A stretch of 61,726 bases of DNA, counting the filler. It is 6 parts of 6 records of this genome, joined end to end, with 100 filler letters (N's around TTAATTAATTAA, not from the genome) between each part and the next. Parts side by side here need not be neighbours in the genome. Positions count along the whole stretch, not along the records: positions 22,439 to 37,324 come from DRR723986_11797; 5 more parts are not named here. One strand, given 5' to 3'. Below are positions 20,825 to 39,950 of this stretch, in pieces. Every line of letters starts with the position of its first letter. Within the stretch, counting starts at the first letter, position 1. The notes beneath the pieces were generated by a model, which was not told the origin of the DNA, searched no databases, and saw nothing but the letters and a program-made list of their open reading frames with translations. Made by a program: the position numbers and the translations under genes.

Positions 20825-20878
20825 CGCCAAATCCTTGTACGAGAAAGGAAAAGGGCGCTCGGCGGGCGCCCGTTTTCA

Positions 20879-22009: not shown

Positions 22010-22136
22010 CGGCTCTGCAACCTCAATTCTGTATGAAACAATGGCCCACTTATCTTGGGACGCGGCGCGGCACCGGTCATGCGGGTTTCAGGGGTTTTAC
22101 ACGCGAATCGCCTTCGGTTTCCAGCCCCGAGGCCCC

Positions 22137-22338
22137 TCAGTCCTGCGCCATGCCTTCTATCAGCGGAACAAAGCGCACCGGGCAAAGCTCGTCATAATGC
22201 AAACCTTGCGCTGTCTTGGTAACCTTGATCAGGCTTTGCACCGCATCCGACTGCCCGACAGGCAGCACCATGATGCCACCCTCCTTCAGTTGCGCCAGCA
22301 GCGGTCCCGGCGGGTCTTCGGCGGCGGCGGTCACAATG
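22137..22338 (-). CDS. pcm: protein-L-isoaspartate O-methyltransferase (5' truncated)
   Basis: [28 protein letters not shown]...VRFVPLIEG. Confidence 0.9.
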
Positions 22339-22438
22339 NNNNNNNNNNNNNNNNNNNNNNNNNNNNNNNNNNNNNNNNNNNNTTAATTAATTAANNNNNN
22401 NNNNNNNNNNNNNNNNNNNNNNNNNNNNNNNNNNNNNN
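22339..22438. other. artificial contig linker
   Basis: N-TTAATTAATTAA-N. Confidence 0.99.
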
Positions 22439-22468
22439 TCAGAGGTTCAAATCCTCTTGGGTGCGCCA
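22439..22468 (+). tRNA. 3' part of a tRNA (T-arm, acceptor strand, CCA), probably tRNA-Arg; likely att core
   Basis: AGAGG-TTCAAAT-CCTCT T-arm followed by TGGGTGCG-CCA; anticodon not present, so the isotype is inferred from the acceptor stem. Confidence 0.8.
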
Positions 22469-22516
22469 ATAAAATCAAGTCTTTAGCCGACTTCACCCAG
22501 CCCCTCGAAAAGTTTT

Positions 22517-22535
22517 TGTAAGCATTGTGTAAGCA
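22517..22535. repeat. TGTAAGCA direct repeat pair, putative integrase arm-type sites
   Basis: Copies at 22517 and 22528 (11-bp period), about 50 bp from the tRNA end. Confidence 0.5.
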
Positions 22536-22615
22536 GCGGCACGGCATCGGGCCTCAGTGCGCAAGGTGCTTCTTCAAGCTTAACAGCATAACCCTCCCTC
22601 TATTTTGCGAAATAG

Positions 22616-22732
22616 GTGGGGAAGCGGGGAACGTCCCGAAATTTCATAATTTTATTATTAAAAACAGCGCATTATGAAGCGCAAGCGCTCCCCACCCGCC
22701 GGGGATTGCCCGGGGAATGGGGATGGGGAACG
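22616..22732. repeat. iteron-like putative replication origin downstream of the primase
   Basis: Six GGGGA(A) copies plus an inverted TCCCC flanking an AT-rich core (22640-22665). Confidence 0.6.
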
Positions 22733-22747
22733 CTTTCTGTCCCGCGT

Positions 22748-25459
22748 TTAGTTGTCGAAAATCGCCGACGAAATCACGTAACAGCGGGGATGACCGATAC
22801 CGGCCACTTTTCGCTTCTTGGTCAGGCGGCCATCCCGGCCGGTTTCAATCGCCCCGGCATCCCGCAGCGCCCTTGCCGCCGCTTCCGGATCAAGCCCGCC
22901 CTGGCGACAGACCTGCTTCCAGGCTTCGGCGAAAAACGCCCATTCCCGGCCTCCGTCCTCGCGCTCGACAACCACGCCAACACGGTCGCGAAGCGATGCC
23001 GCCGGCTCGATCGCATCATCCGCCTGGAACCGGCTGGCGCCATGGGCTTCGATGAAAGCCCGGACATAGTCGACGGCGTTCCGGTCCTCGGCTGAATGGC
23101 AGCCCCCACGGGCTTCCAGCCAGTCCGCAAAGGACCTCTCAGCCGCCCGCGTAGGCTCGCCAGCCGGCCATGGCGCGACGCCCGCCTCGATCGCCGCCTC
23201 GCCCGCAGCCGCGATCATGGCGAACCGCCCGGCCGCCCGCCGAACCTGACCATCCGCCCCCTCGGGCGTGTTCTGGTCTTCGAACATGCGACAGCGCACC
23301 AGGAAGATTTCGACGGCAACATCGATCCGCGGGACAAGCCATTCGAGGAAAGCGGGGCCGGCATGCCCGTAGTGAGCGCCAGCCGCTTGCCTGATATGAT
23401 CGGCAAGCGCCGCCGCCCCGGGCTTACCGTGAAGAGATTCAAAGAGCCCGCAGCCCGCCCCGGCATCCGCCGGCAGGTCCAAAACTCGAACCTCTTGGCC
23501 CGCCGCCTGCCGGCCGCGCCCATCTTCGGCGATCTTGTCGGCAAGCGACAGTTCGCCGGTAGACAGGAAAATCACCCGCCAGGTCTTCGACCGCCGGGCA
23601 TCCCCCTCCCGGCTCGCCCTCGCCTTTCCCTGCCCATTGGCCAGCATGTAAGCCGCGGCGCCTGCATCTCGGCCGCTGACCTGCCCCATTTCGTCGAGGC
23701 ACAACAGCGTGTCCGTATGGGCTTCGGCTACCCCTTCCAAGCCGTTCGCCGTCGCGCGCCAGGTGCGCAGGAAATCCCTCCCACCCCAAACACTCGCCGC
23801 CGCATGCAGCGCCGTTGTCTTCCCCGTCGAAGATCCGCCGCGAAGATGGACACCGCCGCCCTCCCGCATGGCCGGCATCAGGAAAGGCCCGCAGAAGGCG
23901 GCCGACATCGCCAGCATCAGGCGGCTATTCCCGACAGCGAACCGCGCGACGCCATCGCGCCACCCGTCAAGCGTGCCATTCTGGAAATAGCCGTGTTCGG
24001 CGCCTTCGAGACAGATAAGCGCCTCGCCGGCGAGGTTCCCCGCCGAGAAGGCCCGATCGGGAAGCGCGAAGACGTGATCGCTGACCCAACCCGTCCGGGT
24101 GTAGTGCCGTGCATGATCAAGGCGCCCGGCATTGATCCAGGCGCGCAGGCGAGCGGTCGAATTCTTGTCGGCCGCGATGAATAACCCCGCCTCGGCAAGC
24201 CGCGGGATGAAATCTTCCTTCCTCCCCGCCCATGAGGCCGAAGGCAGGATGACGCGCCGAGTGCAGCCCTTGCGGGTCACGATCTCGAACAGCCTTTCGG
24301 AGCGGCCGTCAGCGTCTTCCATCTCGTAGAGCGGCCTAATGTAACCGGCGAGGCGAACATAGGCCCCGCCGTCCGCTTCCTTATCGTCGAAATACCAGAG
24401 GCAGGACTCTTCAGCATCGAGAATAAAGGGATCGGGTGCAGCGTCCTCGTTGTTCTCCCAGCACCGCGACCATGCCCGGTTCCGGGTGTCGAAGTCGCGG
24501 GTGTCGGCTGGGCCATAGCCGAAACCCTTAGCGCTCCATTCGGCGACGGCTTCCCGGAATTGCGATTCCGACAAACCGGCCAGACGGCAGAAACGGGCGA
24601 AGGCGAATTCGGCGCCGCTTCGTGATTGGTCATTCTGGAAGTCGCACTCGCCGCGCTCGATCAGCTTAAGGGCTTGGCGACAGTGCGGCGCGCGGGAACT
24701 TTTAGCCCAGCGCGCCAGCGCCGCCAGGCCCGGCATTTCCCTGCCCCCTTCAATCACCGCGAATTGCACCCGCGCCTTCGCCAACGCCTCGGCCTGGGCG
24801 GGCTTAGACACCCTCGCCGGTCTTTTGGGCTTCTTCGCCCGTTTGCCCGAAAGAGCCTGGCCGACGTCATCTATCAGCCGCCGCAATTGCGCGACGTCGA
24901 CATGGGCGAGATGTTCCGGAGTGCCTTCAAGATGCCAGCCCGTCACCGTGAAATAGCGCCCAGCCGTATACAGATCGATGCAAGGCGGATGCTCGCCGGT
25001 TCCGCCTTTCCACGTCTTCGCGCCGCCCTTTGTCAGGTCCTCGCGCACCGCCTCGATGGCCTCTGCCGATGCCAGCGCGAACGTCTTGAGCCCGGTCTTT
25101 GATGGGCTGATCTCGGTATAGCTGCCGAAGCAATCAACCGCCGCCCGCGCCCAGTCTAGGAGCGCGCCGGTCTCGGGATCTCGACATGAGTCGAGATCGA
25201 GACCGATCAGGAAATCGCCGGAGTCGAGTTCGCCCAGGACGATACCGACGCCAGCATGCCCCCGGGCTTCGGCCAGCGCTTCGGCTTCGGCGCGCGTCGC
25301 CCAGGTTGCCGGGTCAGTCGACGATGCCGGGCCGCTCGCGCAGAACGGCATCTTTGTTGCCTTGCCCTTGCGATCTATCGAAGCCCAGGACACCCAGCGG
25401 CGCGTATGGGCCAGCGCGGCGAATGGGTCAGGTTTTGTTGAAGCCTCTTGCGTCATCAT
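22748..25459 (-). CDS. prim-pol (NrS-1-like) / DUF927 primase-helicase
   Basis: ASSTDPATW, GLDLD and YTEISPSKTG N-terminal domain; GGSSTGKTT Walker A, WRATANGLEG, LDEMG; ATGA overlap with the upstream gene. Confidence 0.88.
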   Translation of the reverse strand: MMTQEASTKPDPFAALAHTRRWVSWASIDRKGKATKMPFCASGPASSTDPATWATRAEAEALAEARGHAGVGIVLGELDSGDFLIGLDLDSCRDPETGALLDWARAAVDCFGSYTEISPSKTGLKTFALASAEAIEAVREDLTKGGAKTWKGGTGEHPPCIDLYTAGRYFTVTGWHLEGTPEHLAHVDVAQLRRLIDDVGQALSGKRAKKPKRPARVSKPAQAEALAKARVQFAVIEGGREMPGLAALARWAKSSRAPHCRQALKLIERGECDFQNDQSRSGAEFAFARFCRLAGLSESQFREAVAEWSAKGFGYGPADTRDFDTRNRAWSRCWENNEDAAPDPFILDAEESCLWYFDDKEADGGAYVRLAGYIRPLYEMEDADGRSERLFEIVTRKGCTRRVILPSASWAGRKEDFIPRLAEAGLFIAADKNSTARLRAWINAGRLDHARHYTRTGWVSDHVFALPDRAFSAGNLAGEALICLEGAEHGYFQNGTLDGWRDGVARFAVGNSRLMLAMSAAFCGPFLMPAMREGGGVHLRGGSSTGKTTALHAAASVWGGRDFLRTWRATANGLEGVAEAHTDTLLCLDEMGQVSGRDAGAAAYMLANGQGKARASREGDARRSKTWRVIFLSTGELSLADKIAEDGRGRQAAGQEVRVLDLPADAGAGCGLFESLHGKPGAAALADHIRQAAGAHYGHAGPAFLEWLVPRIDVAVEIFLVRCRMFEDQNTPEGADGQVRRAAGRFAMIAAAGEAAIEAGVAPWPAGEPTRAAERSFADWLEARGGCHSAEDRNAVDYVRAFIEAHGASRFQADDAIEPAASLRDRVGVVVEREDGGREWAFFAEAWKQVCRQGGLDPEAAARALRDAGAIETGRDGRLTKKRKVAGIGHPRCYVISSAIFDN

Positions 25460-25926
25460 TTCAGCGCCGCCCAATTCGGTTCGAGCCCGGCGAAATCGTC
25501 GCAATAGATTTCTGCATCGGTGTAACTGAGCCCCATCAGGTCGGCGATGAATTCAACCGGGTCATGGCTCTTGCTTGAACACCACGACTTGAAAAATTGT
25601 CCGCGGCCGAATTCGACTTGCAGCACCCGGCTGCCGAAGCTTGTGAAGATATAGGTCAAATTCACGGTGCAAATATAGCTTCCCGCAAAGGCACCCCGGC
25701 TGTGTGCGGCGGCGAGGCCCTCCCAGCGTTGCCGGGTGAGATCCGGATCGAGGCGTGCCGCTCCGCATACGGAATCCCATTTGCGCTCCGAAACGCACCA
25801 TTGCGGCACGTCCGGGCGATCATTTTCCAGCATCGCCGAAATCCCCTTCGCCCCTTCGCGATACTGGATTCGGATGTCGCCCGATTCCGGCTTCAGGCCT
25901 TCCGGCAAGTAGATCGTCAACGACAT
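25456..25926 (-). CDS. hypothetical protein, C-terminus resembling a degenerate primase CHC2 domain
   Basis: Translationally coupled on both sides; ...SKSHDPVEFIADLMGLSYTDA. Confidence 0.6.
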   Translation of the reverse strand: MSLTIYLPEGLKPESGDIRIQYREGAKGISAMLENDRPDVPQWCVSERKWDSVCGAARLDPDLTRQRWEGLAAAHSRGAFAGSYICTVNLTYIFTSFGSRVLQVEFGRGQFFKSWCSSKSHDPVEFIADLMGLSYTDAEIYCDDFAGLEPNWAALK

Positions 25927-26222
25927 TAGTTTTCTCCGGTGTCAGAGGTGGAAGATTGAAGACGGCCCAGCTTGGCTTTGGCCCAGGCGCGTAGTTCTAT
26001 GACTGGATAAAGGACGCTGTTATTGAACTTCTGAAACTTTGGGCCGCCGCCTACACTTGCCAGCTTGGCCAGAGTTCTTGGCGCATACTGAATGCCGTAC
26101 TCGATAAGCAGGAATTCGCTCGCCTCGGCCCGGCGTAGCCTTGTCTTGTTGCGAAGGTGGGCCGGCAGCAGGCAAGCCGCCGGGGTTCCCACCTCTTCGG
26201 CGGGCTTTTTCGTCTTAACCAT
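25926..26222 (-). CDS. AlpA/excisionase-like DNA-binding protein
   Basis: LRRAEASEFL...TLAKLASVGGGPKF...VLYPVIELRAWA; AAAGGA RBS. Confidence 0.8.
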   Translation of the reverse strand: MVKTKKPAEEVGTPAACLLPAHLRNKTRLRRAEASEFLLIEYGIQYAPRTLAKLASVGGGPKFQKFNNSVLYPVIELRAWAKAKLGRLQSSTSDTGEN

Positions 26223-26240
26223 TTTGGTGTTCCTTTCTGC

Positions 26241-26570
26241 TTACGCGGCTAAGCGCGCCTTTTGTGCAGCCCCAATTAGATTCTCTACCCGTCGAATTCC
26301 GTCCTTGAGCGAACAGTCTTCGATAAAGGCAATCGCCTTGATAATATCTCGAAGCACCACGGCGCCGGTCATCATGGCGCAGTGGCCCGAGCGGAGATCG
26401 ATCAGGTACGAACCCGGAAAGCGGGCGGCGCCCGGGAGGATTACGCCAGACCAGAAAGCGCCGTGACGACTGCCTTTCGGGATCAGGCGCGCCGCGATTT
26501 CGGGCAAGTAGTCGAGCGCATCGTCGCGGACGCGGTTATAGTGGCGGATGTCGAAAGTTGCGCGGGTCAT
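26241..26570 (-). CDS. hypothetical protein, degenerate CHC2-like primase accessory domain
   Basis: LIPKGSRHGAFW...PGSYLIDLRSG...DIIKAIAFI pattern; ATGA coupling. Confidence 0.55.
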   Translation of the reverse strand: MTRATFDIRHYNRVRDDALDYLPEIAARLIPKGSRHGAFWSGVILPGAARFPGSYLIDLRSGHCAMMTGAVVLRDIIKAIAFIEDCSLKDGIRRVENLIGAAQKARLAA

Positions 26571-27244
26571 TGCGGTTTCTCCGCTTCAACATACAATCGG
26601 CCTACCGGTGCCAAGTCGTGAACCCAAAGGGATCGCACGTTTGCGACACCCTTTTGACGTTCACGCAAGTCTTCGCCGTATTCTATCCCCAATCCAGGCG
26701 GGCCATAGATCACAACAAGCCCCCGCCCTTTCGGGTCCTGATCGCCCGCCTGATCGAGAAAAACGATTTCACAAATCCTTGCAGGGTTTCGGGTCATTGA
26801 AATGCGAACAGTGCCGAATGTGGCGAAATCCTTGTGCGCAGACGCTGAGATCAGCGCTGTAATCATATCGCCAAGATTCGACGGCGCACCTTTCGAAAGC
26901 CCCAGACCGGGAACGTCTTTGAGGAATTCCTTGATGTAGTCCTGCCCCTGATATTCCCTTGGATCGACGATCGCCCGGCGCGGCCCCAATTCAACATAGG
27001 ATGATCTGGGCGATTTCAGAACGAACGGCACAACAGCACTAACTTCGGCAGCCATGTCACAGCCAAGAATCGCCGCTACAAAGTTAGTCGCATCATCTGG
27101 CGTCGTGAATGACCTTGGGCGCCCCATTCCATCAGTATGACGTAACCCGGCAAGTACAAGGTTTCGGTCAAAATTTCGCACGGTCTTTTCGGGCCATCCA
27201 GTGGCCTCGACCATCGCTGTAATCAATTCACTTGTGCGAGCCAA
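26567..27244 (-). CDS. putative winged-helix regulator, first gene of the replication operon
   Basis: GGAG RBS, TTG start; SELITAMVEATGWPEKTVRNFDRNLVLAGL helix pattern. Confidence 0.6.
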   Translation of the reverse strand: MARTSELITAMVEATGWPEKTVRNFDRNLVLAGLRHTDGMGRPRSFTTPDDATNFVAAILGCDMAAEVSAVVPFVLKSPRSSYVELGPRRAIVDPREYQGQDYIKEFLKDVPGLGLSKGAPSNLGDMITALISASAHKDFATFGTVRISMTRNPARICEIVFLDQAGDQDPKGRGLVVIYGPPGLGIEYGEDLRERQKGVANVRSLWVHDLAPVGRLYVEAEKPQ

Positions 27245-27261
27245 AACGAATCTCCAATGCC

Positions 27262-27304
27262 TGAGTCTGACTCAACCATACAGCATGCCCTAAAGGACCG
27301 TCAA
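27262..27304 (-). promoter_or_regulatory. sigma70-like promoter with a palindromic operator
   Basis: Minus strand TTGACG (27304-27299), N18, TATGGT (27280-27275); palindrome TGAGTC-T-GACTCA at 27262-27274. Confidence 0.55.
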
Positions 27305-27491
27305 TGATTTAGTTGAGTTCGCCTTATTTTAACGCTGGACAGGTGCCGGGCCTCGCTGCATCGCCACTCAAGCACGTTCCGAAAGGCACTTTCAAAGAAG
27401 CAAAATGACCCGAGTGGACATGCTGTTATTCAAGGTTTATCGACAAGCTAATCCGCCCACAGATATTATTCTGCCAGAAACTTATATGCGT

Positions 27492-28073
27492 TCAACTATC
27501 TCGGCGAAGTCTATCAGCCAATTCGACCGCTTCGAGCGCAGCACCTTGGTCTGAGTTGACGACTTTTAGCGCGACGGCATGTGAAGACATAGCGCTGGAA
27601 GAAACCGCTCTTGCTATTTCTGGCAATGCATTCAAGGCTTGCTCTAGCAACAGTTCGCGGTGCGCTAAGCCCTTCGCCGTGTATTGATCAATTTCTTCGG
27701 CCGTCAGCTGACCGTACCCAAGGGCCCTAAGAAGCTCATTGATCAGCAAACCTTCGCGACGAGTGGACTCCTGATTTACCGCGTCCGCGTTCTCCGGGGT
27801 CGGTTCCAATCTCACACTATCCATATAATTCCTGTAAGCTGAGAGTACTCTCGAATTCCCAGGAAAATGCATTGGGAGAGTGCGGATGGCCCAGCTATAT
27901 CCTGGATCGGCGTATCGACCACGAGTCGCCAGAAGCGTCTGAAGGATCGTTTCTTTCTGTTCCCGTTTTCTCCGCCTATGTTCCCACCACAGTGTGATGG
28001 TGACGGCTGACGCCGGTCCTAAGAATGCCGCCAATATGGCTCCTATCCCTAACCACGTTGTCAATTTGCGCAC
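27492..28073 (-). CDS. membrane-anchored DUF6680-like protein (cargo)
   Basis: N-terminal TM helix, ILQTLLATRG motif; lower GC than flanks. Confidence 0.6.
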   Translation of the reverse strand: MRKLTTWLGIGAILAAFLGPASAVTITLWWEHRRRKREQKETILQTLLATRGRYADPGYSWAIRTLPMHFPGNSRVLSAYRNYMDSVRLEPTPENADAVNQESTRREGLLINELLRALGYGQLTAEEIDQYTAKGLAHRELLLEQALNALPEIARAVSSSAMSSHAVALKVVNSDQGAALEAVELADRLRRDS

Positions 28074-28253
28074 CCCCGCTGACTAGGTTTGGTTGAGACA
28101 CAATCAACATACAGTGAAATACCATAGCTTCAAGAAGCCGCCTCTAGCGCAGATTATGCAAGATGAGTTGAAGTCTCCTTCTTTGATCACCTCAAAAGTA
28201 AAGCACGCTTTGCCCGATGGCAGCTTCGGACTACTTTTGGTGGTTCAGTATAG

Positions 28254-29864
28254 TCATACGAAGCAGAATCCACGCGATTCATACGGGCTCGGCGCGGCGT
28301 CCGTTGCGATCAGCCTGCCGATTGCCATAGCCGCGGCGACCGCGCCATCGATCCGGCCGCGGGCCTTCGCTTTCGTGAATTTCTCATTTTCCGTCGGGTC
28401 GACCTCCGCGACAACGTTGGCGAAGTTCATCCGCAGGATCGGGTTGCCGCCATGCCGGAAGCGCTTCGCCAGGATCGCCTTCTTTATCTCCTTCACCGGC
28501 GCCGCCATGCTGGCGAAGCCCTGGCCGAAGGCCGCCACCTCGAAACCCTCGGCCTGAAGCGCGACCGTGACGGCCGTTGAGTTCCAGCGGTCGATGGCGA
28601 CTTCACGAACGCCATAGCGCTGGCCGAGTTCGACCACATGCTCGATAAGCGCGGCATGGTCGATGACGGTCCCGGGTGTCAGCGTCAGGAACCCCTCTTC
28701 GGCCCATTGAAGGTAGTTTGCGGCGTCGGCGTCGCCCTTGCGGGCGATCGAGTCCTCGGGAAGGAAAAAATGCGCCAGCAAGTTATAGGAGCGCGCCTCC
28801 CCTTCCCCATCCGGAAAGACAGCGACAACGGCGCTAAGGTCCTCGACAGATGACAGGTCGACGCCCACCCAGCACGGCCGCCCGATCAGGTCTTCTTCCG
28901 GCGTTATCGGCTCGGCCTGGTCATAGAGGCCGAGATCCACCCACGGCTCGGCGGCGCCTTCGGTCCAGATATTGAGGTGATAGCGCTTGAAGTCGGCGAT
29001 CTCTGCCGGGAAGTGCTGAATCCGCCGCGCCTTCGTCCGCAATTCTTCGAGCGACAGGAAGCCGGCATCGATCGCGGGATTGGCCGCGCGCCAGGCGCTT
29101 TCATCGCGCCAGTCGGCGTCCGGCGGCGCGGCAAAAATGATCGGTGCGAATGAGGGGTCCTCAATCTCGCCTGACGCCACCTTTTGTGAATAATCCCACA
29201 GGTCATGCGCCAAGCCGCCCATGCCTTCGCCAGCCGTCGAAATGATGACCGTGAGCGGATGGGCGCGCTTCACCATGGAGTCCGTGACCGTCTTGAACAG
29301 CTTGCGCGCTTCGCTCGGCTGCCAGGCGTGGATCTCATCGGCGAGGAAAAACGACACGTTAAGCCCGTGCTTCGAATAGGCTTCGCTCGAAATCGCCTTT
29401 AGCGTCGAACGGGATTTCGGATGCATCAGCGTTTTGCGGCTTTCGATGGCGCGGACACGGGCGGCGAGCGCCTGATCCTGCTGAACAAAAGCGTGCGAGG
29501 AATTGAATGCGATCCCGGCATTCTCCCGATCGGCTGCCGCCATCACGATCTGGCCGCCGGCCTCATTCTCCGGCCCCAGGAAGTGGGCGAGGCTCAGCGC
29601 CGAGGCGAGCGTCGTTTTCGCATTTCCGCGCGGCACCCAGATTGCGGCCATGCGCACAAGCGGGCGCCCGGCTTCATCGACCGGGCCATATATGCGCCGG
29701 ATGATCGCGCGCTGGAAATCATGCAGCGTAAACGGCTGGCCGGCGAAGTCGCCTTCCCACAATTTCAGCCGCGAGACGAACCGCTCGATCCGGTCGGCGC
29801 GGCCGGTCGGGTCGGGATAGAGCGCCGGATCAGGCGAGAAGAGAGGAGTCGTCGTTCCAGCCAT
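28254..29864 (-). CDS. terL: terminase large subunit (Terminase_1/HK97 type)
   Basis: VPRGNAKTT Walker A, LADEIH Walker B, IISTAG, GVDLS, IDGAVAAAMA nuclease motifs. Confidence 0.95.
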   Translation of the reverse strand: MAGTTTPLFSPDPALYPDPTGRADRIERFVSRLKLWEGDFAGQPFTLHDFQRAIIRRIYGPVDEAGRPLVRMAAIWVPRGNAKTTLASALSLAHFLGPENEAGGQIVMAAADRENAGIAFNSSHAFVQQDQALAARVRAIESRKTLMHPKSRSTLKAISSEAYSKHGLNVSFFLADEIHAWQPSEARKLFKTVTDSMVKRAHPLTVIISTAGEGMGGLAHDLWDYSQKVASGEIEDPSFAPIIFAAPPDADWRDESAWRAANPAIDAGFLSLEELRTKARRIQHFPAEIADFKRYHLNIWTEGAAEPWVDLGLYDQAEPITPEEDLIGRPCWVGVDLSSVEDLSAVVAVFPDGEGEARSYNLLAHFFLPEDSIARKGDADAANYLQWAEEGFLTLTPGTVIDHAALIEHVVELGQRYGVREVAIDRWNSTAVTVALQAEGFEVAAFGQGFASMAAPVKEIKKAILAKRFRHGGNPILRMNFANVVAEVDPTENEKFTKAKARGRIDGAVAAAMAIGRLIATDAAPSPYESRGFCFV

Positions 29865-30243
29865 CGTCGGCAGGGTCCTTCCGTACCGTCTTCGCCTGGG
29901 CTTTCGGCGTCAGTTCAAGCAGCGCCGCCACACGGCACACCGTCGACATGGCCTGGTTTTGAAGGCGCGCCAGCGGGTGCAGCGCCACATTCCCCTTCTG
30001 GCCGGCGACCGTGCGGCCTTCCTCGGACATTACCTTTTCGGCCTCGATCACCTGGCCAGCGGCAATGCAGTAGGTTTCGAGCAGCGCCAGCACGTCAGGG
30101 GTCAGAACAATGCGCGCGGCGAGTTGCGCGCCGGTGCGCTTCCATTCGGCTTGCGCCTCGGCCGCCATCCAGCGCGGCGCGGGCGGAAGCTTGCCCTTGC
30201 CGCCGGCGATCGGAATCAGTTTGGGCTTGTTACCTCGGGTCAT
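29830..30243 (-). CDS. terS: terminase small subunit, P27 family
   Basis: PPAPRWM..EAQAEW...LLETYC...HPL...LELTP; overlaps the terL start. Confidence 0.9.
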   Translation of the reverse strand: MTRGNKPKLIPIAGGKGKLPPAPRWMAAEAQAEWKRTGAQLAARIVLTPDVLALLETYCIAAGQVIEAEKVMSEEGRTVAGQKGNVALHPLARLQNQAMSTVCRVAALLELTPKAQAKTVRKDPADDGWNDDSSLLA

Positions 30244-30249
30244 GGTTTT

Positions 30250-30335
30250 TCACTCCCTGAATTGCGCAATATTGCGTGCGAGACCCCCCCGCCGGTTCCC
30301 GGCCTTCCTATTGGAAATTCGGAAGCCCCCCCGGG
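30250..30335 (-). promoter_or_regulatory. putative cos packaging region between HNH and terS
   Basis: Minus strand G-run (CCCGGGGGG) ... GGAACCGGCGGGGGGTC; this position and G-run pattern are typical of HK97-like cos phages. Confidence 0.6.
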
Positions 30336-30692
30336 TCACAGGATCGGCCGGCCGAAGCCGCCTTCGCTTTCGATCGCTTTCCGGGTGTTGCAGGCCTTCG
30401 CCATCGGTTGCCAGTTGTTCCGATCCCAGAACAGGAACATGTCGCCCTTGTGAGCGATGATATGATCGACCACGTTGGCGCGCCGCCCGCAGCCGCAGGC
30501 ACACAGTTGATTGCCAGGCTCGGCGAGGAAGGCGCGCGAAGCGATCTCCCACTCCTTGCTATAGCCGCGCTTCCTGGCGCTCAGCCGCCTTGCATCGGCA
30601 GCCTTGCGACGCGCTTTATGGCACTCCGGACAGTTGCGCCCCGTATAGGGCGCATGACCATAAGCGCAGTGCTTGGGCGGGGCGTAGGGCAT
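30336..30692 (-). CDS. HNH endonuclease (packaging cofactor, gp74-like)
   Basis: SARKRGYSKEW...CACGC...VVDHIIAHKGD...FWDRNNWQPM..CN. Confidence 0.92.
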   Translation of the reverse strand: MPYAPPKHCAYGHAPYTGRNCPECHKARRKAADARRLSARKRGYSKEWEIASRAFLAEPGNQLCACGCGRRANVVDHIIAHKGDMFLFWDRNNWQPMAKACNTRKAIESEGGFGRPIL

Positions 30693-30761
30693 CGGCGGAC
30701 TAACTCCCTAAACGGGCGGGCGCATGGCGGAAAAGGAGACACCACGCGCCCGCCACACGCA

Positions 30762-31151
30762 TCACGCAGCAGGCCGGACAGTTGCGCGTGATTTGATCAC
30801 CGTGACGCTGGCCAGCATGCTGGTGCCGGCCGTCTTGGTCAGGATAACGCGGACATAGCGCTTGGTGCCCAGATAGCCGACTTCTGCAATGCTTTGAGCC
30901 GGCAGGCTATCGAATGGCGACTTGTATTGCAGGTCGGCATCATCGACGCTGGCGAAGTCTGCCGGCGTATCGGTATCGGAATGCTGCACATCAGCCGTGA
31001 ACGCCGCGCCGCCAGTTTCCGCCCCGGTGTGGAACAGAAAGCAAGCGCTGCCGAAGCCTTCCAGGTCGACGAATTCCGACGTCCGGTTGGCAGTAAGGGA
31101 TTCCGGCGGTATCGCCTCGACCACCTCGATATTGTTGTAAAGGTCACGCAT
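30762..31151 (-). CDS. putative capsid decoration/cement protein
   Basis: 129 aa, beta-rich, directly after the capsid gene with AGGAG RBS; YLGTKRYVRV motif. Confidence 0.55.
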   Translation of the reverse strand: MRDLYNNIEVVEAIPPESLTANRTSEFVDLEGFGSACFLFHTGAETGGAAFTADVQHSDTDTPADFASVDDADLQYKSPFDSLPAQSIAEVGYLGTKRYVRVILTKTAGTSMLASVTVIKSRATVRPAA

Positions 31152-31166
31152 GGGGCTGATCTCCTA

Positions 31167-32807
31167 TCAGGTCGCGCATTTCAGTTTGCGGAAGGCTTCG
31201 GACAGCACCACATCGCCGCCGACGCGCCGGCGGGCGTGGTAACGAACCAGGCCCTTGTTCGCGACAGTGTATGGATCTCGCAGCACAGACAGGGCGAGGC
31301 GGTCATAGACACGGTAGCCGCGCTGGAAGTTACCGAAGATCACCGGCACTTTGTTCGAGCCGATGTCTTCCATGTCCGGCGCCTCGATCACCGGGCGGCC
31401 CAGCAGAAGATCGGGCTGGCCATCCTGAAGCGAATTCTGCCACAGGAAGCGGCCATTTGAATCCTTCAGCAGGCGAACCACCGCAATCGTTGAGGCGTTC
31501 ATCATCCAGACGCCGGTTGCGCGATAGAAGGCCGGCAGGGCGTACATCAGGTTGATCAGCGTCTCATCCGGCGCCGTTCCCAGCGACGTGGTTGAGCCGG
31601 TCTTCGAGAAGGCGATATTCTTGTTGGTGAGAAAGCCGGTCGGCTTCTTCACGCCATCGCCCAGGACAAAAGCACCGCCTTCGAGCCGGCCGAATTCCTC
31701 GGCAAGATCCGCGGCGACTTCGGCCTCGACATTGACGGCCGAGTCTTCGAGCAGCCGGCGGGACACGTCGACATAGCAGGACGCCTCATGCGTCGGAATC
31801 TCGATCTGGCCATAGGCGGCTTCGGTTTCGGTTCGGGTTTCCGTCTCACCCACCCATTGCGCCGTCGGCTGGCCGGTGCGGCGCGGCAGGATCACCGAAC
31901 CGGCGGCCGTTGCCCCGACGCGGGCAGCCTGGCGAACCGGCGAGATTTCAACGATGCCCTTGATCACTTCGGCAACGAATTGCGGCGGGGCGAGATAACC
32001 GCCCGTCGTATCGTCGGCGACTTTCAGGCTTTTGACTTCATCCGGGCCCATATGCTCGGCGCCGCGGCGAAGGAAATTGCCGAATGCACGCTTTTCGATC
32101 GCGGCGGCATCCTCGCCTTCACCGGCCGGGCGCGCGATGGCGCCGGGACGTGAAAGCCGGGTTTCGATGGACTCCGCGGTTTGGCGGATCTCGTCCAGGA
32201 CCGTTTCGACGGCGCCGAGGCGTTCATCGACACGATCAGCCCGCGACTCCAGTTCGGAGGCACGGGTTTCGAGCGCGGCACCATCGCCGCCCCCTTCCTT
32301 GATTACAGGTTTCGGCATGTTGCCCTCTTCCCTTTGCTTGACATTAGCGACCCTCGCCCCGTGAGCCGCAGGAATTGAAACGATAGAAATTTCCACAAGT
32401 TCGATTTCGAGCAGCCGGCGGCCGCCCCCGTCGACATTCTCCCAGCGCCGGGTTCGGAACCCGATCGAAAGCCCATCGAGCGCGCCTGCCTTCAGCAGCG
32501 CATAGGCTTCGGCGCCGCGCCGTGTGCTGAGAATGATCCGGCCGGAAACGGAAAGCCCGTTCGCGTCTTCCTTGATCTCGGTCCAGACACCGATCGGCTC
32601 GGCAATGTCATGCTGCCACAGCATCAGCGGCATCGTGCCGGCTGCCTTGTGCTCGGCGAGGCTCGCCGCAAAGGCACCGGGCGCGATCGTGTCGCCATAA
32701 TCGTCGGCCTCGGCATCGAACAGCGACGCATAGCCGGCGATCTCGCCAGCCCCGCCGCTGCCACCGGCCAGCTTGATTTCCAAGTCTATGGTGCCGTCAA
32801 GCCGCAT
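31167..32807 (-). CDS. fused HK97 prohead protease + major capsid protein
   Basis: N-terminal GYASLF, LWQHD, GLSIGF, EISIVSIPA protease; coiled-coil delta domain; GGYLAP, WVGE, GDGVKKPTG, LLGRPV, FGNF capsid motifs. Confidence 0.95.
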   Translation of the reverse strand: MRLDGTIDLEIKLAGGSGGAGEIAGYASLFDAEADDYGDTIAPGAFAASLAEHKAAGTMPLMLWQHDIAEPIGVWTEIKEDANGLSVSGRIILSTRRGAEAYALLKAGALDGLSIGFRTRRWENVDGGGRRLLEIELVEISIVSIPAAHGARVANVKQREEGNMPKPVIKEGGGDGAALETRASELESRADRVDERLGAVETVLDEIRQTAESIETRLSRPGAIARPAGEGEDAAAIEKRAFGNFLRRGAEHMGPDEVKSLKVADDTTGGYLAPPQFVAEVIKGIVEISPVRQAARVGATAAGSVILPRRTGQPTAQWVGETETRTETEAAYGQIEIPTHEASCYVDVSRRLLEDSAVNVEAEVAADLAEEFGRLEGGAFVLGDGVKKPTGFLTNKNIAFSKTGSTTSLGTAPDETLINLMYALPAFYRATGVWMMNASTIAVVRLLKDSNGRFLWQNSLQDGQPDLLLGRPVIEAPDMEDIGSNKVPVIFGNFQRGYRVYDRLALSVLRDPYTVANKGLVRYHARRRVGGDVVLSEAFRKLKCAT

Positions 32808-33996
32808 TGCTGCCTCCCGAGGCGTCTTCTGTGTTCATCGGCAGGCGGAACTGATCGCCGCCTTGATAGGGCGCCCGGTTCTCGGCAGCGCGCACTTCAT
32901 TCGGCGACAGAAGCCCATTCGTCACCGCCTTGGCATAGGCTTCGAAGCGCGAGGCGAGGTCGGCCCGGGCGAGATCATCTGTCAGGAACTCGGCGTAATA
33001 GGTTGGCCGTTCGCGGGCCGTCAGCAGCGCCCGGCGGATGCCGCCCTCCCAGGCCTTCAGCCATGGCATCAGGGTGAAGGAAACGAATTGCCGCCCGAGG
33101 CTTTCAGCGTTCGCATGCGTGGTCCGTTCGAGGTCTTGCAGCATGTGCAAGGGTACGCGGAAGCCGCGCGCGATCTCAGCCACCTGATGGCGGCGCAGTT
33201 CGAGGAATTGAAGGTCGACCGAATTGAACTGAAGCGGGGTGAAATCCATCCCGTCTTCCAGCACAAGCGTCTTCCCGGAATTGGCGCCGCCGGCATAGGC
33301 CTGGGCGAATTCACCGCGAAGGCGTCGCATGGCGTCGGGCGTCAGCGCCTTGGCGTATTTAAACACGCCAGACGGGCGAGCCCCCTCCCCGAACAGGCGA
33401 GCGCCATGCTCTTCCATCGCCAGGGCGAGCCCGATCGCCTCGCGCATCTGGTGGATCGGCGACAGGCCGCCCAGGGCGTGCAGGTGGAAGATTTCCCGGC
33501 GGGAATAGCGCCGGGTCTGCCCGTCGCCGATCGCCACTTCATAGGACGGTTCCATCGTCACCGGATCGGTCTTGATCGTGACAGACGTAGAAGGGATCTG
33601 GATAAGTTCCCGCACCTCGCCCCTAGGATTCCGGCTGATATAGGCGAAGGCATGCCCGTGCTTGCAAAGCGCTTCCTGCATGTCGAGGCGGAATTCGAAG
33701 CCCGATGTCCAGTCATTCGGCTGATCATGCAGCAGGGTGTAGAGCGGGTGATCCGTCGCCCGGGCTTTCGTGCCATTGGGAAGGCGCTGGTAGAGTTGCA
33801 GCGGCAGTTGCGCGACGCTTTCGGAGATCACCTTCACGCAGGCATAGACTGCGGGGCAACGCATGGCGATTTCCGGCGAGACCGCGACGCCAGACGCGAC
33901 AGGCACGGCGCCGAACAAGGCGAGCATGTCCGGCGATGCATCACGCAAAGCCGATTTGGCCTTCAGGCCAACAAGTCGCTGGAATCGTTCGAGCAT
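32797..33996 (-). CDS. HK97 family portal protein
   Basis: PAVYACVKVISESVAQLPL, QFLELRRHQVAEIARGFRVP, LSPNEVRAAEN. Confidence 0.95.
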   Translation of the reverse strand: MLERFQRLVGLKAKSALRDASPDMLALFGAVPVASGVAVSPEIAMRCPAVYACVKVISESVAQLPLQLYQRLPNGTKARATDHPLYTLLHDQPNDWTSGFEFRLDMQEALCKHGHAFAYISRNPRGEVRELIQIPSTSVTIKTDPVTMEPSYEVAIGDGQTRRYSRREIFHLHALGGLSPIHQMREAIGLALAMEEHGARLFGEGARPSGVFKYAKALTPDAMRRLRGEFAQAYAGGANSGKTLVLEDGMDFTPLQFNSVDLQFLELRRHQVAEIARGFRVPLHMLQDLERTTHANAESLGRQFVSFTLMPWLKAWEGGIRRALLTARERPTYYAEFLTDDLARADLASRFEAYAKAVTNGLLSPNEVRAAENRAPYQGGDQFRLPMNTEDASGGSNAA

Positions 33997-34080
33997 GTGC
34001 CCTTACCTGCCGTTGCAGGTCGCACATTCCAGGGAAATCAGGGCGTTACAATCTCAAACGTCACAGGACGGATGATTTAA

Positions 34081-34154
34081 CTTTACTCGCCTTTACTGGG
34101 ACTTACGAGAGTTTTCTAGAGTTGTCCGAAATTTGAGATTCATTGTTCGGACAA
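34081..34154. promoter_or_regulatory. putative control region of the packaging operon
   Basis: CTTTACT at 34081 and 34091 plus ACTTAC at 34101; inverted repeat TTGTCCGAA-N15-TTCGGACAA at 34122-34154. Confidence 0.5.
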
Positions 34155-34263
34155 AGGGTGGAGCAAACCCATAGTGGTGTTCGATTTTTTTGTGTTGAGC
34201 GACCAATCCATTTTCTAGCCAGTATCGTGTAAAAAAACGAGGTAAAATAGACGGTGGGAATCG

Positions 34264-34629
34264 ATGCTTTCAGCGCTCAGAAAAGCCAAACTAGCCTTAA
34301 GTAAGCGATACCGAAATTCGGAGGTCCGAGTCCGCAAGTTCTTCCAACTACGGAGTGCAGAGCACCGAAATAATGATGACAGAAGATCTGTCGACCGAAA
34401 AAGAAAATTCAGTGCCGCTCGCATCATTTTGACTGATAAGGAGCTATCGATCTACGCAACTGTGCTAAACAGGAGCTCCAATGGCGCGCAACTGAAGCTC
34501 AAATATTTTATTACGCTCCCTGAAAACTTTGAAATTGAAGTGCGCGAGGAAAACGCTCTATTGCCTTTACGCTTCAGATGTACGCTACGATGGCAAAATA
34601 AACGCAAAATCGGTGTTTCAATTGCTTGA
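34264..34629 (+). CDS. PilZ domain protein
   Basis: RSVDR (RxxxR) and NRSSNG (D/NxSxxG) motifs; C-terminal CTLRW...IGV. Confidence 0.8.
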   Translation: MLSALRKAKLALSKRYRNSEVRVRKFFQLRSAEHRNNDDRRSVDRKRKFSAARIILTDKELSIYATVLNRSSNGAQLKLKYFITLPENFEIEVREENALLPLRFRCTLRWQNKRKIGVSIA

Positions 34630-34674
34630 GTATGACAGGACATTTCTCAGTAGGCAAATCAATTATCGTTCTAA

Positions 34675-34944
34675 CTACGCAACATTTTTGACTAAATACC
34701 GAACTCTTATGTCGTATCCCCGCTGCCAAACTAGTTGGCAATGGTGCTTAACTGACTGACCAGAAATGGGATTGTCAATTTCCAGATCGAAAAAGGGTGG
34801 GCATGGCCAGACAACACCAACAAGTAGCCTAGCGCCAACGTTCGACATGCTGACAATACTTACACTCATCGCAGAGCGTCCAAGGTTGTGCACAATACGG
34901 GCGGTCTTCAGGGCCTTTCTCCGGAACTGCGACCTGTCTTCCAT
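34675..34944 (-). CDS. PilZ domain protein (second motif degenerate)
   Basis: RSQFR, SMSNVGARL, CQLVWQRG. Confidence 0.78.
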   Translation of the reverse strand: MEDRSQFRRKALKTARIVHNLGRSAMSVSIVSMSNVGARLLVGVVWPCPPFFDLEIDNPISGQSVKHHCQLVWQRGYDIRVRYLVKNVA

Positions 34945-35094
34945 GTAACCAAATTCCCTAGCCGCTCAGCTCTCAATCCGATTTTCTGCCGCTCGCATAG
35001 CAAGTAATCTCGACTTAGATCTGACCATTGATACATCTTTGATTGATCAAACTGATGATTAAGGGTGTAGCATTTCAACCTACCCGAGCGGGTT

Positions 35095-35328
35095 ATGCAG
35101 GCAGCATTAGTCGCCTATGGCACGAAGCTTGCTTCTCGAGCCCGTATGACCCAGAGTGACAAAATCATATTGTTTCCGGTTCTAAGAACCGATGGACCGG
35201 CGAAAAGAGACGCTATCAAAGCCGAGTATCGCAAGCGCGCTGCGGCACTTCCGCAATGGCTTCGCGATTTGGATACAGACTGGATTTACAACGAACTCGC
35301 GCAGCGAAAGATCGATGGACAGTTTTAG
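35095..35328 (+). CDS. small hypothetical protein
   Basis: 60-77 aa ORF filling the gap; no recognisable motif. Confidence 0.35.
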   Translation: MQAALVAYGTKLASRARMTQSDKIILFPVLRTDGPAKRDAIKAEYRKRAAALPQWLRDLDTDWIYNELAQRKIDGQF

Positions 35329-35398
35329 TATCGGAAAACGTCAGGATTGATCGCGTCCGCAAATCAAAAGGTGGTCGCAATTTCAGCGTACCGGCAGA

Positions 35399-35815
35399 TT
35401 ACCGCACCTTACAGGCAAGCAGCCATTGCGAAGGAAACATCTCGCCGGCGAGAACCGGGTGCCGAGAGTGCACGCCCGTCAGCGCTGATGGATTATCGTT
35501 CAGCATGATCTGTGTGACGTTTATGGTTCCAAACGGCGTGCTTTCGAGAAAATGAATCACGCCTGGGCCGTCCATTGCGACAACAGGAACCGATCCCGCA
35601 TTCCCGGTCATGATCCAATTCTCATCATCGAGCCTTGAGAAGGTGATATTGAACACCTTGTCCTTTTCGACGATATAGCTCGTCAGCGCATCATTGGCCT
35701 GGGCGTGAGCAACCTCCTCGCAGTCGATTGCCCAAGGCAGAGGCTTTTCAGCCCCCGCCGGCATCGACGCCGCCACCGCCAGGCCGCCCAGGATCGCCGC
35801 TTTGATTGCCCGCAT
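35399..35815 (-). CDS. secreted hypothetical protein
   Basis: Signal peptide (AGA-E), two cysteines, GGAG/GGGA upstream. Confidence 0.7.
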   Translation of the reverse strand: MRAIKAAILGGLAVAASMPAGAEKPLPWAIDCEEVAHAQANDALTSYIVEKDKVFNITFSRLDDENWIMTGNAGSVPVVAMDGPGVIHFLESTPFGTINVTQIMLNDNPSALTGVHSRHPVLAGEMFPSQWLLACKVR

Positions 35816-35924
35816 GGTCCCGCTCCGATTTATTCGGATTCAATCAATACGTTTTCACGGCATCGGGCAAGGCGCGGGTGGGGCAGGCCAATCCCAACAG
35901 CCAACTAGTTCATATTCGCACGAC

Positions 35925-36287
35925 TCACTCACACCCTATCCCATCACCGTCGCGATCCAGGTGCGCACCATAACCTGGCTCACCGCGCCGGACAGGCGCA
36001 GCGCCGGCAGCACGAGCCTCAGCACAATTACGGAAACTTCGGATCATTGGCTGCCTAACTGGACTACCAGAAGACGCCGACGAACCGCCATTGGAGGAAA
36101 AATAGGAAGGCGGTGGCGCAGGTGGCGGCGGAGGCGAATAGCTTGACCGATGACAGTGATAGTCACCTGTCTTCCGATTGTGGTGACACCCTTTAGAGTC
36201 GAGTCCACCGCCATGCGCTAAAGCAGGCGCCGAAATGATGCCCGACGCGATCACAAGAAAAGCCCCACGCAGTATTAGACCAAACAT
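35925..36287 (-). CDS. secreted YHYH + Excalibur calcium-binding domain protein
   Basis: HGGGLDSKGCHHNRKTGDYHCH, Pro-rich linker, FRNCAEARAAG...YGAHLDRDGDGIGCE. Confidence 0.9.
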   Translation of the reverse strand: MFGLILRGAFLVIASGIISAPALAHGGGLDSKGCHHNRKTGDYHCHRSSYSPPPPPAPPPSYFSSNGGSSASSGSPVRQPMIRSFRNCAEARAAGAAPVRRGEPGYGAHLDRDGDGIGCE

Positions 36288-36328
36288 TTATCACCCTCCG
36301 CATTTCAGTCGGAATCTAGAAGGCAGGA

Positions 36329-37105
36329 TTACTTGATTGCAGCAGCATCAAACGTGAACTGGTGCGTATCACCGGCAAAATTGACCGCGACCTGCACTGT
36401 TGTTTGACCCTTGCTAAGCCGAATTGGGCCAACCACCACTTTGCCACCAAATGTCTGCCCAGGATAAACCGTGGTTGCCTGTAGAATGTGGTTTGACACC
36501 TCGTTCAGCGTGGCTTGCAAGCTGGACTGTATGCTTTTCATTTGGTCTGCGGTGCGCGCACGATTTTCAGCCTCAAGCGCCTGGGTTATTGCCGGGTTGT
36601 AGGTGGTTGTGGTCGAAGCTCCGTATCCGGATGAATTGTATGTCGCCGTTCCATACGGCGAATAAACATTGCCGTAGGTATTAGTTCGAGCAGTGGTATA
36701 GGATGAACTATAAGCAGCCTGAGAATTGGCGTAGCTATTCGACGCCGAAGACATCGCTACAGCAAATGCCTGCCACGCGGCAGCATTCCGCGCTTCTTTC
36801 TCAAGTTCGGCAGCGCTAAAAACCTTAACCTGCCCGTTGGTATCCACAATTTCGAGATTGGTGGTGTCTAGAACCTCAGGTTCTGCCCCGTCATTCAGTA
36901 CCGAAATGTAAAACCCTGCGCGCTCTTCAAATGACTTACTTGAGGGCGATAGCGACACTACAGACTTCTCACCGTAATTGGTGACAGTCGGAATTCCCTT
37001 GTAAAAGTCTAACTCCTGCCCGTCTGTCGGTACCGGGGTTAGGTTGTAAGTGGTTGTGCAAGCAGAAATGACTGCGATAGCCAAAATCGAAGCAAGAAAT
37101 CTCAT
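36329..37105 (-). CDS. lipoprotein of unknown function
   Basis: GGAGG RBS, lipobox ISAC, Ser/Thr/Tyr-rich central segment. Confidence 0.8.
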   Translation of the reverse strand: MRFLASILAIAVISACTTTYNLTPVPTDGQELDFYKGIPTVTNYGEKSVVSLSPSSKSFEERAGFYISVLNDGAEPEVLDTTNLEIVDTNGQVKVFSAAELEKEARNAAAWQAFAVAMSSASNSYANSQAAYSSSYTTARTNTYGNVYSPYGTATYNSSGYGASTTTTYNPAITQALEAENRARTADQMKSIQSSLQATLNEVSNHILQATTVYPGQTFGGKVVVGPIRLSKGQTTVQVAVNFAGDTHQFTFDAAAIK

Positions 37106-37222
37106 TAGCCCCTCCAAAGCCGCTTTTAGAAATTACTACTTTTGCGCAACAACAAAGCAACCAGATATCGAGCGCATACCCCAAAAGAATTGATCCAGCC
37201 CGGAATTCAGCAAGCCTCCACC

Positions 37223-37324
37223 GGGGAAGGCGGGGAACGATTTGGCCCAGATGGGGAGAGATATAATCAATAAATACATAGCATTATGTATGTGTTCCCC
37301 ACCTTCCCCACCTTCCCCACCTTC
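37223..37324. repeat. second iteron-like putative origin, truncated at the contig end
   Basis: GGGGAAGGCGGGGAACG, AT-rich core, palindrome ATACATA-GCAT-TATGTAT, then TTCCCCACC x3. Confidence 0.6.
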
Positions 37325-37424
37325 NNNNNNNNNNNNNNNNNNNNNNNNNNNNNNNNNNNNNNNNNNNNTTAATTAATTAANNNNNNNNNNNNNNNNNNNN
37401 NNNNNNNNNNNNNNNNNNNNNNNN
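37325..37424. other. artificial contig linker
   Basis: N-TTAATTAATTAA-N. Confidence 0.99.
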
Positions 37425-37962: not shown

Positions 37963-38122
37963 GCTGTGTCTCCTGGTGGCTTAATCGGTGGCCCCGTCCT
38001 GCGGGATCAGAGCCAGTCATTATCGGTGAAATCCCCGCTGGCGACAGGCCACTCGTGGATTTGCGCGCAGCTGGTATAAGTAAGCCAACCTCTGCGCGCC
38101 GGGCCGTACCCGGTGCCGCGCG

Positions 38123-39772: not shown

Positions 39773-39950
39773 CGGGAGTCTCCTGGGCGGTGGCTGACTG
39801 GCTGGCAAGGTAGCAGAAGCGCTGCGCCGGTGGAACCGGGGCTCGCTGAGCGCAAAAGTCATAGCCGCATGATGGTTTGTGTCATTGAGTGCCCGGTGTG
39901 CCTCGGGAATACTCCGGTTTCTTCTTTGAGCCTGATTGGGAGGCACCCCT

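Follow-up and report, generated by a model that had tools for sequence, protein, structure and literature searches.

A putative neck-less variant in an alphaproteobacterial family of capsid-forming phage satellites

Introduction

Phage-inducible chromosomal islands of the capsid-forming kind (cf-PICIs), with EcCIEDL933 of Escherichia coli as their prototype, combine a regulator of AlpA, MerR or Stl type, a primase-replicase and a head-first, terminase-last gene block within 10-18 kb and carry no tail or lysis genes; the main texts of 10.1101/2025.02.11.637232 and PMC10085698 present the adaptor and the connector as their distinguishing core components. As described in 10.1101/2025.02.11.637232, these two proteins set the tail specificity of the E. 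coli and Klebsiella cf-PICIs, and in the cf-PICIs studied there an element's own pair decides which phage tails are usable, and so which bacteria can be reached. Here we analyse an element that occupies positions 22439-37324 of a 61,726-nt stretch of DNA (the window). It has in common with cf-PICIs a head-first, terminase-last block, a primase and the absence of tail and lysis genes, a likeness to the E. coli elements drawn from their published descriptions. It also has a candidate regulator, and it differs from cf-PICIs in having neither adaptor nor connector.

Satellite phage P4 replicates from an iteron origin by means of a primase-helicase, has a further iteron cluster and a small regulator of AlpA type, and integrates at a tRNA gene. 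The element resembles it in replicon type, second iteron cluster and tRNA site, with a candidate AlpA-type regulator, and its P4-type replicon with iterons is unlike that of the E. coli cf-PICI prototype. P4 lacks capsid, portal and terminase genes of its own and instead reshapes the helper capsid, with the Psu-Delta-Sid operon that PMC10085698 outlines; no family belonging to that capsid-size operon was found among the open reading frames (ORFs) of the element, which separates it from P4-like satellites. The Streptomyces satellites MulchRoom and MiniFlayer have their own capsid and packaging genes and use helper tails, as we propose for the element, and are set apart from it by their description in PMC10690885, which gives them no obvious replicase, direct terminal repeats and virulent phages as hosts to parasitise.

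Results

Head and packaging genes without neck genes

The window is made of six contigs joined through N44-TTAATTAATTAA-N44 linkers (5591-5690, 12148-12247, 22339-22438, 37325-37424 and 43909-44008), and adjacent parts are not genomic neighbours. The element under study is exactly one whole contig of 14,886 bp. Every statement of absence below is scoped to this contig, which is also the meaning given here to the wording 'anywhere in 15 kb' of a first-pass annotation of the same DNA. The scan covered 21 of its ORFs, 20 against Pfam and PHROGs at E <= 0.01 and one against Pfam only. The head and packaging genes, from portal to TerL, are as follows.

32797-33996, minus strand: portal (PF04860 1.8e-104; phrog_12)
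31167-32807, minus strand: protease-capsid fusion of 546 aa that joins a prohead protease to an HK97-fold major capsid protein (PF04586 at residues 17-161, PF05065 at residues 269-544)
30762-31151, minus strand: 129-aa predicted jellyroll capsid cement (decoration) protein (phrog_5707 6.3e-28)
30693-30761, no strand, 69 bp: cement-HNH junction, with a GC-rich inverted repeat; in relatives, the site of the neck gene Ad1 with or without a second, Hc1
30336-30692, minus strand: HNH endonuclease of the HK97-type packaging set (phrog_144 2.4e-19, no Pfam match; 50-67% identity in relatives)
29830-30243, minus strand: TerS (PF05119 6.1e-18; phrog_83)
28254-29864, minus strand: TerL (PF03354 and PF20441; phrog_9 5.4e-133)

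These genes form one tight minus-strand operon. Calculated from the coordinates, the successive distances from portal to TerL are an 11-nt overlap, 15 bp, 69 bp, 92 bp and a 35-nt overlap, so the gaps of at most about 90 bp given in the first-pass annotation were read correctly. All six genes align end to end with their homologues, and for TerL 11 distinct relatives give matches that cover the full length at 71-76% identity. The contig therefore has its own portal, prohead protease, major capsid protein, HNH, TerS and TerL, as cf-PICIs do; a protease-capsid fusion is known from Firmicutes cf-PICIs too, according to PMC10085698. The head-tail adaptor and connector of cf-PICIs are missing from it; the cement gene and HNH are only 69 bp apart, and HNH and terS 92 bp. 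No neck, tail, tape-measure or lysis family was detected among the 21 ORFs, nor did the Pfam and PHROGs scan return a tail or holin family. The earlier reading of an element with its own head and packaging genes, no connector or adaptor and no tail, tape-measure or lysis gene thus holds for the contig. The neck, tail, tape-measure and lysis genes of a complete tailed prophage are all absent from it, and its left end is an attachment (att) site.

The first-pass annotation had allowed that the 129-aa protein might be a connector. By tblastn, the only named phage that it matched was Streptomyces phage Chymera, at a gene with the annotation 'capsid cementing protein'. An AlphaFold2 model built from 24 homologues (predicted local distance difference test score, pLDDT, 85.7) is an all-beta sandwich, and Foldseek against the PDB gave as its top match 8cjz_A, a 129-residue chain of the Carin1 phage capsid (template modelling score, TM, 0.56). 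Further matches were 3j4u_H (TM 0.57) and 7eel_H, and all are chains of phage capsid entries: 3j4u comes from a Bordetella phage and bears the title 'non-covalent chainmail secured by jellyroll', and 7eel is the capsid of cyanophage Pam1. We take the three chains to be the cement proteins of their entries. Against BFVD, the model matched uncharacterised phage proteins with TM up to 0.86, none of them a connector. Every connector-bearing relative carries the cement gene alongside its connector, and the 129-aa protein therefore cannot substitute for the neck. The modelled fold and this co-occurrence exclude a hidden connector and indicate a capsid cement (decoration) protein. In this the element differs from EcCIEDL933, whose capsid is described without a decoration protein in the accounts consulted.

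Relatives carry an adaptor at the same junction

To gather relatives, we searched one genome per species with TerL, IMG/VR with both the capsid fusion and TerL, and JGI metagenomes with a capsid alignment. After clustering at 97%, 24 distinct relatives had a readable interval all the way from cement gene to terS. The relatives are islands of ~15-16 kb, integrated at tRNA genes in Alphaproteobacteria and with a cf-PICI layout; close relatives with defined ends measure 14.5-17.6 kb and have no tail genes. The best defined is L094, from a Paracoccus metagenome-assembled genome (MAG), which is 15,898 bp long and is bounded by direct repeats of 47 bp from the 3' part of tRNA-Arg(CCT). It begins with an integrase (phrog_1, 1e-49) and several small ORFs, the last of them at the alpA position; there follow the primase, iterons, portal, protease-capsid, cement gene, a 182-aa ORF, HNH, TerS, TerL, a small conserved ORF and the tRNA.

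The 182-aa ORF of L094 belongs to a group of 182-215-aa ORFs that we call Ad1, gp6-like head-tail adaptors by their matches to PF05135, phrog_442 (2e-29) and phrog_40. In some members it is followed by Hc1, a 104-111-aa head closure protein (phrog_25). Of the 24 distinct relatives, 21 have Ad1, Hc1 or both in the interval from cement gene to terS, and all 13 with TerL identity >= 70% have Ad1. At the cement-HNH junction, relatives hold 0.55-1.0 kb against 69 bp in the contig. The layouts recorded from cement gene to terS were these.

Ad1 and Hc1 before HNH: 6 relatives
Ad1 before HNH, Hc1 undetected: 9 relatives (L057 has an unassigned 111-aa ORF after Ad1)
HNH first, then Ad1, Hc1 or both before terS: 9 relatives
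Nothing: 3 relatives (L017, L036 and L037)

Neck genes stood upstream of the portal in no relative. A tblastn search with the Ad1 and Hc1 proteins of relatives against the whole 61,726-nt window found no counterpart, the best E being 0.35. Nor did a neck protein emerge from the remaining ORFs of the contig: the two that the first-pass annotation had singled out for comparison with connector and adaptor folds (35095-35328 and 35399-35815) match no Pfam or PHROG family and lie in cargo that relatives replace, and the ORFs of 225 and 156 aa returned only unnamed clusters or weak primase leads in the Atlas.

Neck-bearing relatives such as L094, L004 (Stappia MAG) and L005 (Lutibaculum baratangense) are 74-76% identical to the contig in TerL, 68-72% in the portal and 54-62% in the capsid fusion. 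They have in common with it the cement gene, HNH-TerS-TerL, the C-terminal half of the primase, the type of iteron origin and the tRNA att end; only the relatives have Ad1, alone or together with Hc1, inserted ahead of HNH after the cement gene, and only they have a tRNA beside terL. On these comparisons, the contig element appears to be a neck-less member of a neck-bearing family that has lost Ad1, and also the Hc1 that many relatives carry.

In the capsid tree the neck-gene layouts are intermixed, with neck-less junctions in at least three places besides the contig. L004 (Ad1 only; 8513-9163) and L027 (Ad1 and Hc1; 6245-7220) have almost identical capsids, a difference that we read as a very recent gain or loss of Hc1. 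Neck genes thus appear to be gained and lost quickly in the family. Where the first-pass annotation had looked to syntenic relatives for a consistent absence of neck genes, most of them carry Ad1 or Hc1, and its proposal of a new satellite type gives way to a derived member of a family with the full cf-PICI gene set. It had also named the possibility that close relatives would be full prophages of which the element is a deletion remnant. The close relatives are satellites of ~15-16 kb and not prophages, and the idea survives in part, in that the element looks like a deletion variant of a neck-bearing ancestral type.

Several relatives stand somewhat apart. L037 ends at a tRNA-Val after terL and was considered as a clean neck-less satellite, a status weakened by an 857-aa tape-measure-like gene upstream (275-2848; phrog_8892 6.1e-17); it may be a prophage. 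L017 has an extra 109-aa ORF between its capsid and cement genes (3630-3959; phrog_12296 'tail fiber protein' 3.1e-25), which, given its position, may be a head fibre or decoration protein. In L018 (3634-8596; the same as L030) HNH follows the cement gene and is followed by a gp6-like ORF, small structural-looking ORFs, Hc1 and then terS, with an ORF after terL that looks tape-measure-like by eye; L018/L030 may be a whole phage with a terminase-last gene order. L003 (8400-11602, Sphingosinicella xenopeptidilytica) is decayed, with an intact-looking terL beside tRNA-Gly that adjoins half of a portal gene and a piece of the capsid gene. A conserved ORF of ~123 aa with no PHROG match directly follows terL in the neck-bearing L005 (8471-8842) and likewise in L002, L006, L025, L033 and L055, and is absent from the contig. 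Two candidates were set aside. The tRNA-Arg gene next to the L004 integrase has the wrong orientation for an integration target, and L039, considered as a second case of the module order seen in the contig (see below), has a Met-zincin host-type gene after terL, so that its downstream alpA-like ORF belongs elsewhere.

The neck-less junction persists in metagenomic relatives

We aligned to the contig the contigs of four public sequencing runs, X2, X3 and X7 among them, giving no weight to uncovered parts. The share of sampled words per run reached at most 0.21, and no RNA run was among the listed runs sharing words with the contig. In X7, a seawater metagenome, record 25 (4,665 nt) covers 28304-32116, starting in terL, crossing terS, HNH and the junction and reaching the capsid gene; it differs by 349 mismatches and 7 small gaps, an identity of ~91%. 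The junction is equally neck-less in this record, where just two 1-nt gaps fall in it; an X3 contig has the same two, at 30720 and 30749. The loss is therefore not an assembly accident, given that a ~91%-identical contig from another metagenome has the same junction. Among the 40 best-supported differences listed, of 1,229 against metagenome relatives, 33 fall at third codon positions (20 of 21 in terL). Together, the shared junction, the third-position bias and the intact genes suggest that the neck-less state has outlasted ~9% divergence while the head and packaging genes remained under purifying selection.

A probable tRNA attachment site at the left end

The left end of the contig consists of two parts.

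22439-22468, plus strand: 30 nt of a tRNA 3' end (T-arm, acceptor strand, CCA); presumed att core and left limit
22469-22536, no strand: element end beside the tRNA, with the AAAATCAAG motif and the TGTAAGCA direct repeat (22517-22536)

The tRNA part is identical at 26 of 30 positions to the tRNA-Arg(CCG) 3' ends beside L005, L025 and L033, with one compensatory T-stem change. This bears out the tRNA 3' end read in the first-pass annotation, though ARAGORN and Rfam found no tRNA on the contig (nothing at all in Rfam at E <= 0.1). The first 30 nt past CCA are 25/30 identical to the terL-side end of L005 and 22/30 to that of L002. Where the contig has the TGTAAGCA direct repeat, a possible integrase arm site, relatives have a repeated GCTTCCT-type motif. 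An X2 contig diverges right after 22468, and an X3 contig starts exactly at 22439, as does the contig studied; these breaks fit a repeated ~30-nt att core that interrupts assemblies.

The right end, at 37324, is cut inside an iteron array. Record 22 of X3 and record 30 of X7, which come from different studies, both stop ~1,443 nt past that point (computed by hand), and the attL repeat and integrase stop codon of L094 are 1,440 nt apart. The ~1.44 kb past 37324 would thus be expected to hold an integrase and a second copy of att, and the element, of which 14.9 kb is seen, would total ~16.3 kb, both sizes being within the cf-PICI range. Such a segment leaves no room for a tail module; Ad1 and Hc1 (~0.95 kb) would fit. 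In IMG/VR, an exact 25-nt iteron pattern used to extend the right end found two unrelated loci, and a 29-nt pattern none.

Placement among known satellites

Counted by hand and not by model profiles, the contig has 8 of the 11 cf-PICI core components of SatelliteFinder, or 9 with an off-contig integrase. The threshold of that model is at least 9 of 11, and with an integrase the contig would correspond to the published 'Type C' (PMC10085698). The main text of that paper counts 333 elements of 'Type C' and is silent on the components they lack, so variants of this kind may be listed there already. 'Alphaproteobacteria' and the genus names tried do not occur in the main texts of 10.1101/2025.02.11.637232 and PMC10085698. 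No description of such an alphaproteobacterial family appeared in the literature searched; the original cf-PICI paper and the supplements, outside that search, may list it. From its gene content, the element is best regarded as a neck-less variant of cf-PICI-like satellites and not as a new satellite type.

Proposed mechanism and competing explanations

We propose that the contig is about nine tenths of a ~16-kb phage satellite at the 3' end of a tRNA gene, probably tRNA-Arg. By homology, the element would excise from the tRNA gene and replicate from its iteron origin with the P4-type primase-helicase; small HK97-type heads would be built from the portal and the protease-capsid fusion and stabilised by the cement protein; and HNH, TerS and TerL would cut and package its own DNA. 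Because the element has neither Ad1 nor Hc1, the filled heads would have to be closed, and coupled to tails, by neck proteins of a helper phage, and lysis would likewise come from the helper. Such a satellite would depend on its helper one step beyond known cf-PICIs. We consider the case for a working neck-less satellite evenly balanced. The broader proposition, that neck loss is graded within one family (Ad1 with Hc1, Ad1 alone, neither) and that a neck-less lineage works through helper-made neck proteins, is plausible, at somewhat lower confidence.

Several observations weigh against a working neck-less satellite. Retention of Ad1 by all 13 close relatives suggests a gene that is normally needed, and no helper phage is known for the element. 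In the E. coli and Klebsiella cf-PICIs, an adaptor-connector mutant, tested in Klebsiella for tail-dependent transfer, regained it when the genes were supplied in trans (as reported in 10.1101/2025.02.11.637232), and loss of both genes could therefore disable transfer. Among the neck-less relatives, L017 and L036 are short contigs, and the tape-measure-like gene of L037 lies 5 kb upstream of its replication genes. The third-position bias draws on 40 of 1,229 differences. At the ends, the contig has no integrase, the second att copy is not seen on a contig cut at 37324, and the ~1.44-kb argument for the right end is indirect. Module order is a further point: the tRNA adjoins terL in 24 of 24 relatives and the primase in the contig. 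An att-integrase module moved into the origin region would explain this swap, the alternative being a composite of two islands.

The deletion of the neck genes may have ended transmission, leaving a disabled satellite that is passed on by vertical descent only or whose head genes have been repurposed. We regard this as unlikely. It is favoured by the same retention of Ad1 and the same mutant, by the lack of an integrase on the contig and by the decayed family member L003, and it has to accommodate six full-length head and packaging genes, ~91%-identical relatives with the same junction in at least two other runs, substitutions listed mostly at third codon positions and a similar junction in three other lineages of the capsid tree. 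Slightly less probable still is an incomplete view, in which neck genes, or a neck-and-tail module, lie past 37324 and the element is not neck-less or is a prophage. The cut within an iteron array leaves space for this: Ad1 and Hc1 together would fit into 1.44 kb, neck genes come after HNH and not before it in 9 of the 24 relatives, and tape-measure-like genes occur after terL in L018/L030 and upstream in L037. Yet the left end is a genuine att/tRNA end, two contigs of different studies stop past the cut at a distance that equals attL plus integrase in L094, the close relatives whose ends are defined have no tail genes in their 14.5-17.6 kb, and no relative has neck genes upstream of the portal.

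We give least credence to a composite of a packaging island and a P4-like primase island beside the tRNA, whether neighbouring, in tandem or joined by chimeric assembly. Each end of the contig has an iteron cluster, the replication and packaging modules are swapped relative to all 24 relatives, and after terL there is nothing like the conserved small ORF and arm site of relatives; these points favour a composite. No second att core was found between terL and the primase module, however, where a 36-nt pattern with <= 3 mismatches matches the contig only at 22444. Record 25 of X7 runs from terL to the capsid gene, the primase side is covered by further contigs and no inter-module joint was reported, and the packaging island of a composite would still be without neck genes.

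If the neck-less element is indeed a working satellite, its choice of helper would be set by the fit of portal to adaptor and not by an adaptor of its own, with a phage, or perhaps a gene transfer agent, as neck donor. A neck-less lineage that keeps its head and packaging genes under selection would mean that control of tail choice can be handed to the helper, and members with two, one and no neck genes would form a natural series for probing the limits of reduction in capsid-forming satellites. The relatives by themselves make up a cf-PICI-like family of marine and soil Alphaproteobacteria that combines a P4-type replicon with a cement protein.

Replication module, cargo and remaining features

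Outside the head and packaging operon, the contig carries the following features.

22616-22735, no strand: iteron cluster 1, GGGGAA-type repeats on either side of an AT-rich core, just downstream of the primase (read from sequence)
22748-25504, minus strand: P4 alpha-type primase-helicase, 918 aa (PF06048 DUF927 1.4e-60; phrog_1139 'DNA primase' 1.7e-77)
25456-25926, minus strand: ORF of 156 aa, lying between primase and AlpA-like gene (unmatched in Pfam and PHROGs)
25926-26222, minus strand: 98-aa AlpA-like helix-turn-helix ORF (50-55% identity to the alpA-position ORF of L001, L002, L004 and L006)
26241-27244, minus strand: a 109-aa and a 225-aa ORF, both upstream of the AlpA-like gene (no family match; unnamed Atlas clusters only)
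27492-28073, minus strand: DUF6680 protein, 193 aa, with a hydrophobic N-terminus, after terL (PF20385 7.1e-21)
34000-37209, no strand: low-GC cargo with two PilZ-like ORFs and ORFs of 77 aa, 138 aa, 120 aa (Excalibur-domain) and 262 aa
37210-37324, no strand: iteron cluster 2, three CCCCACCTT units, an AT-rich core and then GGGGAA-type repeats, at the cut right end

The two HMM matches of the primase confirm the primase replicon proposed earlier. In its C-terminal half it shares 50-53% identity with the primases of relatives, and an IMG/VR search with the primase as query returned no relative. The AlpA-like gene is a more qualified case: a homologue is conserved at the alpA position of relatives, and neither Pfam nor PHROGs (profile hidden Markov models, HMMs) gives a match, even at E 0.5. 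The 98-aa product is probably an AlpA-like regulator or excision factor, a name that comes from reading its helix-turn-helix motif. For the 156-aa ORF, the Atlas gave weak leads to small 'DNA primase' clusters (score 0.90), and a single-sequence fold of the 225-aa ORF was unusable (pLDDT 40.7).

Directly after the primase, relatives have iterons, an inverted copy, an AT-rich core and iterons again. Cluster 1 has the same layout and is the probable replication origin. The AT-rich cores of clusters 1 and 2 are 75% identical, and the pair recalls ori and crr of P4. The iterons of relatives include TGTAGCACC in L004 (4850-4960) and TGTTCCACC in L055 (3750-3880).

The DUF6680 protein, found in none of the relatives compared, may be an accessory or defence gene. 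The cargo has a GC content of 0.46-0.54, against ~0.63 in the operon, and its matches are to PilZ (5.4e-05 and 0.0075) and Excalibur (1.1e-17). Contigs of X2 and X3 skip ~35853-37215, and the cargo is therefore swappable; 34367-35360 is covered by none of the four runs. Read by eye, the cargo ORFs of 138 and 262 aa look exported. A promoter and terminator scan of 27200-34400 gave counts not above those of shuffles.

On the other five contigs of the window, inspected by eye without an HMM scan, no phage genes were noticed and the larger ORFs look ordinary and cellular. The GC content of the last of them (44009-61726) is 0.51-0.58, below that of the contigs at 12248-22338 and 37425-43908.

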